This document shows, one piece after another, positions 2,358 through 31,180 of a stretch of 64,000 bases of DNA. The position numbers and the translations under genes were made by a program. The notes below the pieces were generated by a model that did no database searches, was not told where the DNA came from, and saw nothing but the letters and a program-made list of their open reading frames with translations. This DNA is from Candidatus Hermodarchaeota archaeon (GTDB lineage Archaea; Asgardarchaeota; Lokiarchaeia; Sigyniarchaeales; SOKP01), in assembly GCA_048885525.1 (NCBI GenBank), contig JBHLLP010000002.1, forward strand, positions 75,114 through 139,113. The letters are read 5' to 3'. Within the stretch, counting starts at the first letter, position 1; the number at the start of each line of letters is the position of its first letter.

Positions 2358-4412
2358 ATGAATTCGAAAGGGTTATTTTTAGTAAGTCCTAACATAGGAC
2401 ATCCCAAAATATTGAATATTGATAGTAAATTAACTAAAAAAGACTTTAAAACAGATTTATTAATCATATCTAATATAAAGAATCCAAAAAAAGTAAAAGA
2501 ATTCTTAACAGATAATATTAAATTAATACCTATTTTTGACTATAAGTGGAAATTAGAACAACTTCTAAAAAAAAGAGGTTTAAGAAAAAAAATCAAACGA
2601 TTATGGAGAAAAATAAAAGCTTTTTTCTCATTTAGAAAAAAGGAAAAACATTTTGAAAGTTCAATAGAAGAATTAGACAAGTTTGGAGAAAAACAAAAAA
2701 GAACAGTAAAAATAAAAAAGAAGGATATAAAGAAAATAAAGCCTCGCGCTTTTAGGGGAATCCCAATAATTACTAAAATCATAAATATAATATCAACAAC
2801 CTCAATAAAGATCAATAACTCAAAATATATTGATGATCAATATTGTAGACCTCAGAATTATTTAAGAAAATTAGACGTTTTTGATAATTTGGATTATTTC
2901 TTTAAAATTACTTTAGAATTTAAAATAACTGATGAGATTTTAAAATTTTTGTCAACCAAAAAGTTCGTAATGTTTGACATTTTAGTTGAAGATATAAATT
3001 TGGACAAAGAAATAAATTATCACGCTATTGTAATTTCAAAAAACGATTGGACAAATATCAATATCATACAAGCAACTGATTTACATATAGCTAAAAGAAA
3101 TGATGAAATATTTGATAAAATAAATAAAATGTATCGAAATCTTAGAAGTAAAAATATTAAAAAAATAAATCAAATAGAAACTAATCAACTAAACTCAAAA
3201 GATAAAGGTGATATTAGAAAATCTCTTTTTAAAATTGATCTCTCATTTAAAAAGAGACTGATTAATCCAAACAATCTTTTTAGAAAATTTATTGAGATTG
3301 TAAATAAGAAAGTAACCAAAAATGAAATTGACTTTATAATTATTACAGGAGATATTGTAGATTTTACTAATATTAGTAAAACACCAGAAAATAAAAATAA
3401 AATTTTTAGGTATAAAAAGAGTAATTGGAAAGTCTTCAAAATAATTGTCTTGAATATAAATCAGACTAATACTAAGGGTGTTAAAAGATCAACGGAAATA
3501 TTATGTCCAATCTTTACCATTCCCGGCAATCATGATTATCGCCCTTGGCAGTATGATTTAAATTGGGGAGGAATTTATAAAAAAATAGGGCTTAAAAAAA
3601 TTGAAGCTCAAGCATTAAAAGATGAATATTCAGCTTCTCCAATCAAAGCTATTTTAAAAAGTGAAAATGCATTAAAAGGATATTTGTCCGAAATAAATGC
3701 TTCACTAAATTACTATTTAAAATTAGAAAATTCTGTGTTTATTTTTTTAAATACTGGGGCGGATTCCTATAAAAAAATAACAGATTTTATATCAGGAAGC
3801 CCTTCTCTAACAGGTCTTACTCACAGGCAAATAGAATTTTTAAATAATATTATTGAATATAAGCACAATAAAAAATCTCAAATTTTTCTTTGTTTGCATG
3901 CACCTCCTATAAATACAAGAGAGAAACGAGGTATATTAAGCCGAATAAAGAAAAAATTTAAAAAAATGATGAGAATACATTTAGATCAGTTCAAAGAATC
4001 TAAATTTGCAAGTCTAAAAAGGAAAAGAGAAAAAGCCAGAATTGATAATAAATTTAATATAACATATGGAACGATTTCTTCTAATTGGGAGAAATTGATT
4101 GATTTTTGTATCAAATATTGTATTCTAACTATCTCAGGTCATACACACATGTTAAATGAATATAGATTGAAAAAATCTTTACAAAATAGCTCTAATGATA
4201 AGGAAGTGAAAAATTCATCTTTTTCAGTATTTTATGATGATTATTCTGAGATTTGTAAAAACATAAAGGATATTCAAAAATATAGTCCCTTTATAGTTCA
4301 AACTCCTGCGCTAGGATTAAAATCCTTTAAAAGACTTAAGAAAGCAGGAGCATATCGAGAAATAATAATAAAAAATGGAAAATTAGATTCATTTCAAGTT
4401 AAATATCTATAA
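2358..4412 (+). CDS. Large Lys-rich calcineurin-like metallophosphoesterase
   Basis: Motifs DLH, GDIVD, GNHD, LHAPP and GHTH appear in canonical order with long basic insertions. Confidence 0.85.
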   Translation: MNSKGLFLVSPNIGHPKILNIDSKLTKKDFKTDLLIISNIKNPKKVKEFLTDNIKLIPIFDYKWKLEQLLKKRGLRKKIKRLWRKIKAFFSFRKKEKHFESSIEELDKFGEKQKRTVKIKKKDIKKIKPRAFRGIPIITKIINIISTTSIKINNSKYIDDQYCRPQNYLRKLDVFDNLDYFFKITLEFKITDEILKFLSTKKFVMFDILVEDINLDKEINYHAIVISKNDWTNINIIQATDLHIAKRNDEIFDKINKMYRNLRSKNIKKINQIETNQLNSKDKGDIRKSLFKIDLSFKKRLINPNNLFRKFIEIVNKKVTKNEIDFIIITGDIVDFTNISKTPENKNKIFRYKKSNWKVFKIIVLNINQTNTKGVKRSTEILCPIFTIPGNHDYRPWQYDLNWGGIYKKIGLKKIEAQALKDEYSASPIKAILKSENALKGYLSEINASLNYYLKLENSVFIFLNTGADSYKKITDFISGSPSLTGLTHRQIEFLNNIIEYKHNKKSQIFLCLHAPPINTREKRGILSRIKKKFKKMMRIHLDQFKESKFASLKRKREKARIDNKFNITYGTISSNWEKLIDFCIKYCILTISGHTHMLNEYRLKKSLQNSSNDKEVKNSSFSVFYDDYSEICKNIKDIQKYSPFIVQTPALGLKSFKRLKKAGAYREIIIKNGKLDSFQVKYL

Positions 4413-4457
4413 ATAGTTTATTCATGACATAAAAAAGCAGTGGAGGTGAAAACTAAA

Positions 4458-4775
4458 ATAAAAGATGAGAAAATATGTCAGATATGTAGCTTTCCAAAAG
4501 AATTATGTATCTGTGAAAAATTAGGAGCCGAGGATCAACAAATAGAAATTTATAATGAAAAAAGAAGATGGGGGAAAAAAGTGACCATTGCTAAGTTTAA
4601 TGGTAACTTTAATATTGATTTAGATAATCTTATTACTAGAGCAAAGAAAAAGTGCGCTTCTGGTGGAACATATGGAGACAATTATATTGAAGTACAAGGA
4701 GATCATCGTTTTAGATTAAAAAAATTTCTAATTAATGAAGGTTTCCCTAAAGAAAAAATTTTAATTGAAGATTAA
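4458..4775 (+). CDS. sui1: Translation initiation factor aIF1 (SUI1); start placed at ATA 4458 (track uses GTG 4440)
   Basis: CxxCxxPxxLCxC zinc knuckle, RRWGKKVT, KKKCASGGT, IEVQGDH. SD GGAGGTGA at 4442-4449 overlaps both GTG codons and sits 8 nt before ATA 4458. Confidence 0.93.
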   Translation: MKDEKICQICSFPKELCICEKLGAEDQQIEIYNEKRRWGKKVTIAKFNGNFNIDLDNLITRAKKKCASGGTYGDNYIEVQGDHRFRLKKFLINEGFPKEKILIED

Positions 4776-4952: not shown

Positions 4953-5432
4953 TTATTTTTCCTTTAGAAAAAACATTTTTCTCTTGGAATGAACTGCTTC
5001 AAAAGATTCTTTATAAATTTTGATGTCTTCATGTATTTCTTCTAATTCTTCATTTTTCAGCATATTATCAAAAATTCTTTTTGTTGAGAGGTATAATTTA
5101 GGAACAAATGTATCTATTTGAGATAATTGGTAAGCTAGTTCTTTTATTGAAGAAAAATCTAATTTCAAATTAATTTCTTTCCTTTTAATTCTTTCAATAA
5201 TTTTCTTCTCCAATTTTCTTCGTGAAATATTACTCCATGTTATTTCATACACGAAATAATTGACAGACTGAACTGCTTCAGTTAAAAGGGCGGTTCCTGT
5301 TGCTATAAAAATGCTTCCCGTAATCAAATATGCTGTTAAAGTCCCTAATGCTAGCGTTAATGATCTATAAATTATACTTTTAACAATACTTTGTTTCCAC
5401 TCTATTTTCGACAATTTTTTTTTTAATGTCAT
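4953..5432 (-). CDS. DUF2061-like small membrane protein with soluble C-terminus
   Basis: SIVKSIIYR followed by two hydrophobic helices and YFVYEITW. Confidence 0.6.
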   Translation of the reverse strand: MTLKKKLSKIEWKQSIVKSIIYRSLTLALGTLTAYLITGSIFIATGTALLTEAVQSVNYFVYEITWSNISRRKLEKKIIERIKRKEINLKLDFSSIKELAYQLSQIDTFVPKLYLSTKRIFDNMLKNEELEEIHEDIKIYKESFEAVHSKRKMFFLKEK

Positions 5433-28426: not shown

Positions 28427-29905
28427 ATGGTTTTTAAAGATTTTGATTTAATTTATAAAGATAACCGTTGTGAGATTAAAGATAAACAGAAGATAGAATT
28501 GAAATTAAAGGAAATTTTAGGGGATAACAATGTTTCAACAAAAAAAATTGATATTTTGGCTTATACCAAGGATACATCACTTATAACATTGAATTGGACA
28601 ATCCAAGGTCAAATTGCTGGATTACCAGATTTTGTAACATGGCCAGAAACTACAGAACAAATTAGCGAAATTCTAAAGTTTGCAAATCAAGAAAAGATTC
28701 CAATTATACCATATGGTGAAGGATCTGGAGTTGTTGGTGGAGCAATACCTATTCATGGTGGAATTATACTTGATATGAAGAAATTTAATAAAGTTCTTGA
28801 AATAAATGATAAAAATTTAACAGTTACTGCTCAAACAGGTATAAATGGAATGAATCTAGAGCGATATTTAAATAATAAAGGATATACAACTGGGCATATA
28901 CCCCAATCTCTTTATATTTCTTCTTTAGGAGGATGGATTGCACATCGAGCAGCTGGTCAATTTAGTACTAAATATGGAAAAATTGAAGATATAATATTAG
29001 GAATGGAAGTAATATTACCTCAAGGTGAAATTATTAATTTTAAAACCATCCCTAGGGCTGCAACAGGACCCCAATTAGATAGATTATTCATTGGAGGAGA
29101 AGGTACTCTTGGAATCGTTACAAAAGCCACTTTAAAAATTTGGCCTAATCCAGAAAAAAGATCATTACTCTCATATGCTTTTCCGACTATTGAGGATTCT
29201 TATAATGCTATTAGAGAAATTTTAAGGGAAAATATTTATCCCGCGGTAATAAGGATTTATGATCAAGGTGAAACCTCAAGGCATTTTCCAGACATAAATA
29301 ATGCAAAAGATAAAGTTATGGCAATATTTGTTTGTGAGGGAAATTCAAAACTAGTTGATTTAGAAGTTTCAATAACTATGGAAAAATGCGAGAAAAATTC
29401 TGGGGATGACTGTGGCTTACATCCTGTAGAACATTGGTTTGAGACAAGATTTAGAGTAACAGAAACTTCAGCAATGCCTCCATACAAAATAGTATTTGAT
29501 ACTATTGAAGTAGCTTCACTATGGGAAAATGCTTCAAAAGTTTATCATTCTGTTTTGGAATCAATGAAAAAGTTGCAAGGAATTATAGTGATTACTGCAC
29601 ATATTTCGCATTTTTATCCAAATGGTGTAGGGATTTATTTTAGTTTTGGTGGTGTTCCCGGAAAAGAAGAAACAGATTTGAAATACTACAAAAAATGCTG
29701 GAATACAGTAATTAAAAGTGTTTTAGAATCTGGTGGTTCAATCGCCCACCATCATGGAATTGGAATTAATAGAGCTCATTGGATGGAAAAAGAATGGGGA
29801 GCGTCTTTGAAAACATTAAAGGAAATAAAAAAATTACTAGATCCAAATAATATTCTAAATCCCGGTAAAGTTTATTCAGATATCTGGAATGGAGGTGAAA
29901 CATAA
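28427..29905 (+). CDS. FAD-binding oxidoreductase (VAO family), alkyl-DHAP-synthase-like
   Basis: PYGEGSGVVGG, GHIPQS..SSLGGWIA, GEGTLGIVT, DTIEVA, HISHFY..G..IYF, GSIAHHHGIG. Confidence 0.85.
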   Translation: MVFKDFDLIYKDNRCEIKDKQKIELKLKEILGDNNVSTKKIDILAYTKDTSLITLNWTIQGQIAGLPDFVTWPETTEQISEILKFANQEKIPIIPYGEGSGVVGGAIPIHGGIILDMKKFNKVLEINDKNLTVTAQTGINGMNLERYLNNKGYTTGHIPQSLYISSLGGWIAHRAAGQFSTKYGKIEDIILGMEVILPQGEIINFKTIPRAATGPQLDRLFIGGEGTLGIVTKATLKIWPNPEKRSLLSYAFPTIEDSYNAIREILRENIYPAVIRIYDQGETSRHFPDINNAKDKVMAIFVCEGNSKLVDLEVSITMEKCEKNSGDDCGLHPVEHWFETRFRVTETSAMPPYKIVFDTIEVASLWENASKVYHSVLESMKKLQGIIVITAHISHFYPNGVGIYFSFGGVPGKEETDLKYYKKCWNTVIKSVLESGGSIAHHHGIGINRAHWMEKEWGASLKTLKEIKKLLDPNNILNPGKVYSDIWNGGET

Positions 29906-31180
29906 ATGGGGGTCGAAGAAACATTAAAAAAATATAATTGGATTCTACCGTATATTCAAAATGCCGATAGAACAACAAGATCACTGATAATGAAAAATTT
30001 TAGGCAGAAAAAAGCAAATTTTTTTCCAGAAGGAGAATATAAAGCTGATGTGGACAACCTAATTAAATGCACGTTATGTCCTAATATGTGTAGGTTTGAT
30101 TGTGGGACATTGCAGGCATCATTAACTGAGACAATGAGTCCTGCTTATAAGGCTAGAATTGGCTATTATTTAACAACTGGGAAAATTGATCCTTTAGATA
30201 AAGAAAACAATGCCTTCATAGATTTAATGTATTTATGCACAAATGAAGAGAACTGTAAAATATGGTGCCCTTTTGAATTTTCAGTTGTATCACTTTTAGA
30301 AACTGTCAGAGATGATTTAAATGATAAAGGCTTGATGCCAGATTATTGTAAACAGCAGATTAATAAGTTAAATAAGACCAATACTATAGAAGAATATAAC
30401 ATTTTTGAAACTTATAAAGAAAAAGGAATAGAAAATATTGAAACCGAAGGAAATGATGATGTTTTCTATTATATTGGATGTGAATCAATGAAATTTCCAG
30501 AGGTAGTAAATGCAAATATCCAAATTTTAAAAAAAGCTGGAATCAAATTTTCCACCAATCTTGAGAAAAAAGTATGTTGTGGAGGTCCAGCTTTTAATAT
30601 AAGAGATCTTGAGACCGCTGAAAAATTTGCAAATAAAAATAACGAGCTTATAGCATCTACTGGAGCAAAAGTCATTGTATCAGATTGTCCCGGCTGTGTT
30701 TTAACATTAACAAATAGATATGAAAAAGCAGGAATTAAAACTGAAAAAGAAATTTTACATACTACTCATTTTTTTAAGAAATTATTCGATAATGGAAAAT
30801 TACAAGTTATAAGGAAGCTTCCAGATGATTATAAGCGAATAACAATCCATGATCCCTGCCTTATTGCAAGAAACTTAAATGATACAGAATCAATTAGAGA
30901 AATTCTTAATAAAATTCCAAATTTAGAAATTTTTGAACCAGTATATAACAAAGAGTATGTACATTGCTGTGGTTGGAGTGGAACAGCTCATTGGGCAGAT
31001 AAAGACTTAGCTATCAGAGAAGCACGGAATAGAATTAATGAATTAAAAGAAACTGAGGCAATAATTTTCATATCAGCATGTCCTCTCTGTGAATTAGGAC
31101 TATCTTATGGAATAGAAGATACAGAAAAAGAAAAATATAATATATTGGATATATCTGAAATATTAATAAGAGTATTATAA
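29906..31180 (+). CDS. GlpC/HdrD-like Fe-S oxidoreductase (two CCG domains)
   Basis: CTLCPNMC, C..C...CP, CCGG, DCPGC, HDPC, CCG, ACPLC; SD GGAGGTGA at 29891-29898. Confidence 0.88.
   Translation: MGVEETLKKYNWILPYIQNADRTTRSLIMKNFRQKKANFFPEGEYKADVDNLIKCTLCPNMCRFDCGTLQASLTETMSPAYKARIGYYLTTGKIDPLDKENNAFIDLMYLCTNEENCKIWCPFEFSVVSLLETVRDDLNDKGLMPDYCKQQINKLNKTNTIEEYNIFETYKEKGIENIETEGNDDVFYYIGCESMKFPEVVNANIQILKKAGIKFSTNLEKKVCCGGPAFNIRDLETAEKFANKNNELIASTGAKVIVSDCPGCVLTLTNRYEKAGIKTEKEILHTTHFFKKLFDNGKLQVIRKLPDDYKRITIHDPCLIARNLNDTESIREILNKIPNLEIFEPVYNKEYVHCCGWSGTAHWADKDLAIREARNRINELKETEAIIFISACPLCELGLSYGIEDTEKEKYNILDISEILIRVL

Follow-up and report, generated by a model that had tools for sequence, protein, structure and literature searches.

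Where does translation begin in an aIF1 gene that contains no in-frame ATG and in which the only canonical codons ahead of the conserved protein either touch the ribosome-binding site or lie within it? This question is raised by an open reading frame on the forward strand of the window, that is, the whole stretch of 64,000 nucleotides considered here. Direct reading of the DNA revealed the translated frame at 4440-4775 to contain neither an in-frame ATG nor a methionine, with the sole in-frame canonical codon beyond the two GTG codons at 4440 and 4446 being GTG 4581, found within the SUI1 domain. As the cysteines of an N-terminal zinc knuckle lie upstream of any such internal canonical start, the onset of translation must precede position 4476. 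An earlier note on this DNA had put the start at ATA 4458 and had raised the possibility that aIF1 thereby controls its own synthesis. Both proposals are addressed below.

An Accessory aIF1 Gene in a Loki-Type Genome

Judged by profile and sequence comparisons, ORF 4440-4775 (+) is a second, accessory aIF1/SUI1 copy in a Loki-type (Promethearchaeota) Asgard genome. The translated ORF scored 62 bits against the Pfam SUI1 profile (PF01253; cut-off 25.5) and 109 bits against NCBIfam NF002096 (cut-off 98), while M. jannaschii aIF1 (4MO0) was matched with an E value of 2.6e-24. Alignment to studied archaeal aIF1 paired residues 5-103 with residues 3-101, corresponding to full-length homology. The window protein shares such homology, together with the zinc knuckle and a basic loop, with the studied proteins of M. 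jannaschii (4MO0), P. abyssi (5JB3/5JBH) and S. solfataricus. All four cysteines of the knuckle are present, in the CxxC ... CxC arrangement typical of many archaeal aIF1 proteins.

The genome (3.58 Mb in 87 contigs; 99% complete) contains two SUI1 genes. The second of these, at locus L031 on contig C32, is 62% identical to the window gene. It is orthologous to the one copy that nearly all relatives possess, and is referred to here as the main copy. A class-wide search of 161 genomes revealed window-type copies in only 9 of the 134 genomes of the family, always together with the main copy, such that the distribution of the paralog is patchy whereas that of the main copy is nearly complete. Many more window-type copies were found in metagenomes. 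Maximum-likelihood analysis grouped the window-type genes in a single monophyletic clade (100/99 support).

Comparison of the window copy with its clade relatives gave dN/dS values of 0.07-0.11, with synonymous sites being near saturation. Such purifying selection indicates that the window copy is functional. At the same time, the paralog is dispensable, given that one of the nine window-type copies, in another genome of the same genus (G007; contig C18, L002/L100), is a pseudogene, in which the first cysteine is replaced by tyrosine, two in-frame TAA codons are present and the Shine-Dalgarno (SD) sequence is weakened to GGAGTTGA. The main copy of G007 is intact.

Upstream of the window gene, and on the same strand, is a gene encoding a calcineurin-like phosphoesterase, the stop codon of which lies 29 nt ahead of the SD sequence and 45 nt ahead of ATA 4458. 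The same phosphoesterase gene is found directly upstream of the paralog at five other loci (L042, L095, L099, L059 and L041). It is also present at L096, but not on the same strand within 150 nt upstream of the paralog. More generally, a same-strand gene ends 8-106 nt upstream at 18 of the 22 paralog loci. Given this operon-like proximity of a same-strand upstream gene, an internal start led by an SD sequence is to be expected.

Anatomy of the Start Region

The features of the start region are collected in Table 1.

Table 1. Features of the aIF1 paralog locus, in window coordinates.
Feature	Position	Strand	Basis or remark
Calcineurin-like phosphoesterase gene, 684 aa	2358..4412	+	ORF list, Pfam PF00149; same-strand upstream neighbour
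TATA-like octamer TATAAATA, candidate promoter	4408..4415	+	Putative; overlaps stop codon of upstream gene
In-frame stop TGA	4425..4427	+	Upstream bound of open frame; direct reading
GTG, rival start, 111-aa product	4440..4442	+	Last base is first SD base
Shine-Dalgarno GGAGGTGA	4442..4449	+	8-nt perfect complement to 16S 3' end
GTG within SD	4446..4448	+	Gene-caller start; database protein P0001 (109 aa)
A-rich 8-nt spacer, SD to start codon	4450..4457	+	Direct reading
ATA, proposed initiation codon	4458..4460	+	8 nt past SD; aligns with main-copy ATT
Proposed aIF1 paralog CDS, 105 codons plus TAA	4458..4775	+	Pfam, NCBIfam, PDB 4MO0
N-terminal zinc knuckle, CxxC ... CxC	4476..4514	+	Translation; Cys positions invariant in clade alignment
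SUI1 domain	4533..4748	+	PF01253 match, residues 32-103 of 111-codon frame

The 3' end of 16S rRNA, as read in two relatives, is ...GGATCACCTCC, to which GGAGGTGA is perfectly complementary. The anti-SD sequence was taken from these two relatives because the assembly itself (G000) yielded no 16S rRNA gene. In the window, GGAGGTGA is matched twice, as compared with 0.74 matches expected, a count reached by 15 of 100 shuffles and thus not beyond chance. As such, the weight of the motif comes from its being kept in relatives, rather than from window statistics. The other match, at 29891-29908 (+), is followed 7 nt later by an ATG, and so corresponds to a textbook SD-led start that can serve as a reference for spacing within the window.

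The observations of the earlier note on the layout of this region were borne out by direct reading. The SD sequence indeed overlaps both GTG codons, touching one and enclosing the other, while ATA 4458 follows the SD sequence by 8 nt in a frame devoid of ATG. Likewise, a start at ATA yields the short N-terminus that had been pointed out, with the codons that follow specifying Lys-Asp-Glu-Lys-Ile and the first cysteine being preceded by six residues, as compared with four in the M. jannaschii aIF1 structure. Most ATG starts in the genome are not preceded by an SD motif; where one is present, 4-7 nt, and most often 6-7 nt, separate the end of its GGTGA-equivalent from the ATG. The 8-nt spacing of ATA 4458 is in range, but on the long side.

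Folding of the leader RNA revealed no structure beyond that of shuffled sequences (z = -0.41), and the leader is predicted to be unstructured. The idea of a structural RNA switch in the leader was dropped, since folding was no better than in the shuffles. A frameshift or a longer upstream ORF feeding into aIF1 was also rejected, in light of the in-frame stops and the AT-rich intergenic DNA found upstream of both aIF1 copies. The window as a whole is AT-rich, with a GC content of 25-33%.

The Start Codon in the Paralog Clade

The zinc knuckle next served to align the start regions of 22 distinct intact members of the paralog clade. All but at most one of the 22 (21-22) retain GAGGTGA at a fixed distance from an ATH codon. 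At the position of ATA 4458, ATT is found in 17 members, ATA in three, ATC in one and ATG in one, although the avoidance of G at the third position in this clade would be expected of an ordinary internal isoleucine codon as well. The single ATG, in L091, coincides with the ATA position, and AGGTG precedes it by the same distance. The spacer comprises the least conserved positions of the 22 sequences and shows no third-position pattern, with the base at -1 being A in 21 of the 22. Conservation with codon periodicity, as reflected in third-position variation, begins at the ATA 4458 codon. In L041, the codon equivalent to GTG 4446 is GAG, and no in-frame ATG, GTG or TTG precedes the zinc knuckle.

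The position equivalent to 4440 is more varied. ATG is found there in L095/L232, L092, protein P0013 and the G007 pseudogene, and GTG in L049, with L095 being the closest relative of the window gene (90% identity). In 17 of the 18 other distinct members, the codon is AAG, AAA, AGG, AAT, ACG, AGT or TTA, while in L051 it is the stop codon TAG.

As read from these alignments, translation of the window gene probably starts at AUA 4458, behind a perfect SD sequence. Both GTG codons are likely by-products of the ribosome-binding site, rather than the main start. Dual use of ATA 4458 and GTG 4440 is possible. The assignment of the start to ATA in the earlier note is hence well supported by the 22 clade members and by some 70 main-copy genes (see below), with the ATG or GTG at the 4440-equivalent in the closest relatives sustaining a rival. 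The earlier note had named the use of ATG or GTG by orthologs as grounds for refutation, and the comparison comes out in favor of the note. Aside from those codons at the 4440-equivalent, no free-standing ATG or GTG start was seen, the GTG always being that inside the SD sequence, with one member lacking it and the only ATG occupying the ATA position itself.

Rival Start Codons

Translation could instead begin at GTG 4440, giving rise to a protein of 111 residues through leaderless-type initiation or reinitiation after the upstream gene, with ATA 4458 being an internal isoleucine codon and the SD-like string encoding Glu-Val. In the leaderless case, the transcript would begin 1-3 nt upstream. 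Such a start, while unlikely, has points in its favor. Leaderless genes are taken here as those in which transcription begins at the start codon, or only a few nt from it, and a TATA box lies about 26-30 nt upstream. The octamer TATAAATA would predict a transcript start at about 4437-4439 and is conserved in L095 at the same distance of 23 nt from the codon, a modest TATA peak about 29 nt ahead of ATG indicates that some leaderless genes exist in this genome, and the ATG and GTG codons found at the 4440-equivalent recur within one subclade. Yet the first base of TATAAATA lies 32 nt ahead of 4440, which is 3 nt beyond the genome-wide TATA peak, and its overlap with the 3' end of the phosphoesterase gene means that its conservation may be due to coding. 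The conserved and tight gene pair, moreover, suggests co-transcription with the phosphoesterase gene. The 4440-equivalent is not a start in 18 of the 22 clade members, including that in which it is a stop, and, aside from the SD bases, no constraint is seen on the six codons that separate 4440 from 4458. For a leaderless start, a perfect SD sequence kept downstream at a fixed distance from an ATH codon would be pointless. It also counts against GTG 4440 that, in studies of haloarchaea, GUG performs poorly as a leaderless start.

A start at GTG 4446, yielding 109 residues, is the choice of automatic gene callers for the window protein and most of the clade, but is very improbable. This GTG is the sole canonical codon common to 21 of the 22 clade members, and it is from here that database proteins P0001-P0022, mostly of 109 aa, are called. 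Such agreement is, however, not evidence, as gene callers can choose canonical codons only. Because GTG 4446 lies inside the SD sequence, no ribosome-binding site can serve it. The codon co-varies with the SD sequence, is never ATG or TTG and is GAG in L041, while its counterpart in the main clade is out of frame and yet conserved. On a practical level, gene callers thus put the start of the window aIF1 inside its own ribosome-binding site.

The Main aIF1 Copy

The case for ATA 4458 gains from the main copy, in which the start can be read by exclusion. In L031 and 68 distinct relatives, in-frame stops are found inside or just after a conserved motif, GGTTGTGA, and no ATG, GTG or TTG precedes the first cysteine. 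The start codon, 9 nt past the motif, is ATT in 59 of the 68 relatives, ATC in four and ATA in three, such that 66 of 68 are ATH codons and none is ATG. In L031, the main aIF1 gene of the genome considered here, ATT is the sole possible start. Within the genus, dS of the main copy is about 0.9, and yet ATG is never found at the start. Because a change from ATH to ATG would leave the protein unchanged, avoidance of AUG in the main copy goes beyond coding constraint. Where the spacer is 9 nt, the GTG of GGTTGTGA is out of frame and is nonetheless kept, pointing to an RNA signal rather than a start. The standard ORF list misses the main aIF1 gene, although annotation at NCBI has already placed the start of main-clade proteins at the ATT.

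The two copies thus present the same elements in the same order, namely, a GTGA motif, a spacer of 8-9 nt, an ATH codon, Lys-Asp and the zinc knuckle. They differ in that the main copy, at 62% identity, belongs to a separate clade, contains an SD sequence that is weak and interrupted, and offers no possible canonical start.

The motif GGTTGTGA pairs with the anti-SD sequence only as GG plus GTGA(T). It was also observed that the main-copy GGTTGTGA contains an in-frame TTG followed by TGA (and then by TAA in the genus), as found in L031, L003-L022 and L102-L158. This TTG-TGA is possibly a start-stop mini-ORF, 9 nt ahead of the ATT start.

aIF1 Start Codons in Other Asgard Families and Other Archaea

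Sampling across the phylum, outside the Loki family, gave 63 aIF1 genes with a zinc knuckle, 14 of which lack a canonical start. In the same genomes, genes encoding aIF1A, serving as control, were without a canonical start in none of 50 cases (p = 2e-4, uncorrected for phylogeny). The replacement starts, seen in at least five other Asgard families, are CTG in two families and ATA in three, at an SD-appropriate distance. The CTG genes (L211, L212, L215, L218, L222, L225, L227, L183 and L186) offer no ATG, GTG or TTG before the zinc knuckle. The CTG lies approximately 7-10 nt past GGAG or AGGTG, and sister taxa present GTG at the same codon. In the genes that appear to start at ATA (L163, L168, L169, L171 and L231), this codon lies 9 nt past AGGAGG or GAGGT, with no canonical start being available. 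The L202 gene shows an apparent ATA start 6 nt past GGTG, with an in-frame ATG and GTG just upstream.

By contrast, aIF1 starts at ATG in the DPANN, Nitrososphaerota and Thermoprotei sampled. The earlier note had called for alignment of the 5' ends of sui1 genes across Asgard and other archaea, in search of a conserved non-AUG codon at a fixed distance from the SD sequence. Such a codon is present in the Loki-type genes, whereas the non-Asgard genes sampled have ATG.

As a separate observation, many Asgard aIF1A genes (L277-L326) seem to start at TTG, with the raw translation reading Leu-Pro-Lys-Lys. It would thus seem that aIF1A, too, frequently relies on a weaker start codon, albeit one that is still canonical.

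ATH Starts and the Initiator tRNA

The use of ATH codons as starts was considered across the genome by examining in-frame ATH codons that precede the first canonical start by 10 or more codons. An SD sequence precedes 3.7% of these, as compared with 0.8% of off-frame ATH codons and 1.5% of other codons (Fisher p 1e-6). The distance between the SD sequence and the upstream in-frame ATH codons shows a sharp peak at 6-7 nt, as for ATG, while control codons present no peak. Approximately 43 of 2870 long ORFs display this SD-plus-ATH pattern, corresponding to about 1.5% of genes. Relative to the 6-7 nt typical of both ATG and ATH starts, the spacing in aIF1 is longer, being 8 nt in the window copy and 9 nt in the main copy. 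Two other counts did not prove useful. The count of codons behind GGAGGT was unusable, as it was dominated by in-frame Gly-Gly codons, and a second count was confounded by codons beside true ATG starts; restriction to codons at least 10 codons upstream gave the clean signal.

An initiator-type tRNA with the anticodon CAT and an A1-U72 pair was identified using aragorn. As the anticodon of the initiator tRNA is CAU, initiation at AUA implies a mismatch at the third position. The involvement of a special initiator tRNA was rejected, in view of the presence of this A1-U72 CAT tRNA in a tRNA set that is incomplete (34 by aragorn). That no 16S rRNA gene and only 34 tRNAs were found, the latter even with the intron search, indicates that the RNA gene set of this metagenome-assembled genome is incomplete or intron-rich.

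Does the Weak Start Serve Feedback?

Two factors restrain their own synthesis by way of a weak start site, namely, IF3 in bacteria and eIF1 in eukaryotes. In E. coli, infC, encoding IF3, reportedly starts at AUU and is subject to translational autorepression. Like the window aIF1 gene, infC encodes a proofreader of start codons, is SD-led and presents a conserved AUH codon one mutation away from AUG, with the start codon having been kept weak across many species. The two differ in that IF3 represents another protein family, whereas aIF1/SUI1 is the counterpart of eIF1. Furthermore, two aIF1 paralogs exist here, with the SD sequence of the main copy also being weakened (GGTTGTGA) and that of the window copy being perfect. 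As for eIF1, an AUG in poor context leads to negative autoregulation (Ivanov, 2010, as cited in PMC6237735). eIF1 is orthologous to aIF1 and shares with it the SUI1 fold, a role in start-site stringency and a weak initiation site. In eIF1, however, it is the Kozak context of a scanned AUG that is weak, while in the window aIF1 gene the weak element would be a non-AUG codon set by SD pairing.

Upon the observed anatomy of the start region, its conservation, the paralogy of the two copies, the purifying selection and the fixed distance from SD sequence to ATH codon, the following series of events can be proposed. The 30S small subunit would pair the 3' end of its 16S rRNA with GGAGGTGA, so setting the P site on AUA 4458. 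Initiator Met-tRNA (CAU) would then start the 105-residue protein on AUA, despite the mismatch at the third position. Were aIF1 to disfavor non-AUG codons, more aIF1 would lower initiation at its own AUA or AUU, and less aIF1 would raise it. The result would be negative feedback, as in bacterial infC and eukaryotic eIF1. Work on other species has shown aIF1 to bind the small subunit and to increase start-codon stringency (PMC6237735). In S. solfataricus, aIF1 has been reported to discriminate against non-canonical starts, according to work cited in PMC6237735. aIF1 also stimulates mRNA and tRNA binding (PMC6237735), which counts against a simple feedback.

The degree of conservation described above shows a weak start that has apparently been kept by selection, and, by analogy with IF3 and eIF1, it is plausible that aIF1 limits its own synthesis through this start. 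This idea, and the further suggestion of the earlier note that aIF1 level could tune the other AUH-start genes as a translational regulon, would agree with the comparative pattern, which comprises the lack of ATG in 68 main-copy genes, the different near-cognate codons of other Asgard families, the canonical starts of aIF1A and the approximately 1.5% of genes with an AUH start. To go further and consider the near-cognate starts of aIF1 (AUU, AUA or AUC in the Loki-type genes; CUG or AUA in other Asgard families) as comprising a conserved autoregulatory circuit is tentative, and could well prove wrong. As part of the same reading, it might be, again with considerable doubt, that the strong-SD paralog and the weak-SD main copy jointly set the stringency for the 1-2% of genes that start at AUH. 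If true, the factors that guard start-codon fidelity would, in bacteria, archaea and eukaryotes alike, curb their own synthesis by means of a weak start.

A weak start need not, however, mean feedback, since about 1.5% of the genes in this genome also start at ATH. As such, it is a real possibility, if short of probable, that ATA 4458 is the start and yet takes part in no aIF1-specific feedback, with a weak ATH codon either being tolerated in an AT-rich lineage or serving to lower expression. The SD-plus-ATH pattern shared by those 43 or so long ORFs fits with such an explanation, as does AT mutation pressure, which favors the change of ATG to ATA or ATT. Tolerance is nonetheless difficult to reconcile with the presence of ATH in 66 of 68 main copies and of ATG in none, despite near-saturated synonymous sites and the fact that replacing ATH by ATG would not alter the protein. 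Nor can AT pressure explain why GC-richer Asgard families have CTG at the same place. Both aIF1 paralogs, moreover, keep ATH, while aIF1A in the same genomes is never without a canonical start. The question of feedback can be directly tested with existing archaeal toeprinting systems.

Among the papers that could be searched, including for the studied archaeal aIF1 proteins, none was found to report a non-AUG aIF1 start or aIF1 autoregulation, with Monestier (2018) mentioning eIF1 autoregulation solely as an analogy. New here are the paralog with its perfect SD sequence, the recognition of the annotated GTG as part of that SD sequence and the clade member with ATG at the ATA position. Also new are the subclade with an upstream ATG or GTG and the use of CTG or ATA by aIF1 genes elsewhere among the Asgard families, as set against the aIF1A control. 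What would appear to be a conserved non-AUG start is seen in two paralogs of an archaeal eIF1 ortholog, in the lineage closest to eukaryotes, and, with different codons, in several Asgard families.

Other Observations at the Locus

An out-of-frame ATG is found 7 nt past ATA 4458, where it opens a 19-codon ORF (window 4465-4524, +). Its equivalent is present in most members of the paralog clade, where it is formed by GAT-G codons, and is missing from most main-copy genes, in which the sequence is GAC GAC. This ATG could act as a competitor for locally scanning complexes, although such a role is not favored, given that the ATG arises from Asp-Glu/Asp codons and is missing in most main-copy genes.

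On its other side, the paralog is adjoined by a gene encoding a DUF2061 membrane protein (window 4953-5432, -), and such a gene recurs nearby in L091, L093 and L097. On several metagenome contigs (L091, L092 and L093), genes encoding a TFIIB-type protein and TBP are found 1-3 kb from the paralog. The neighborhood of the paralog may thus represent a cluster of spare general expression factors.
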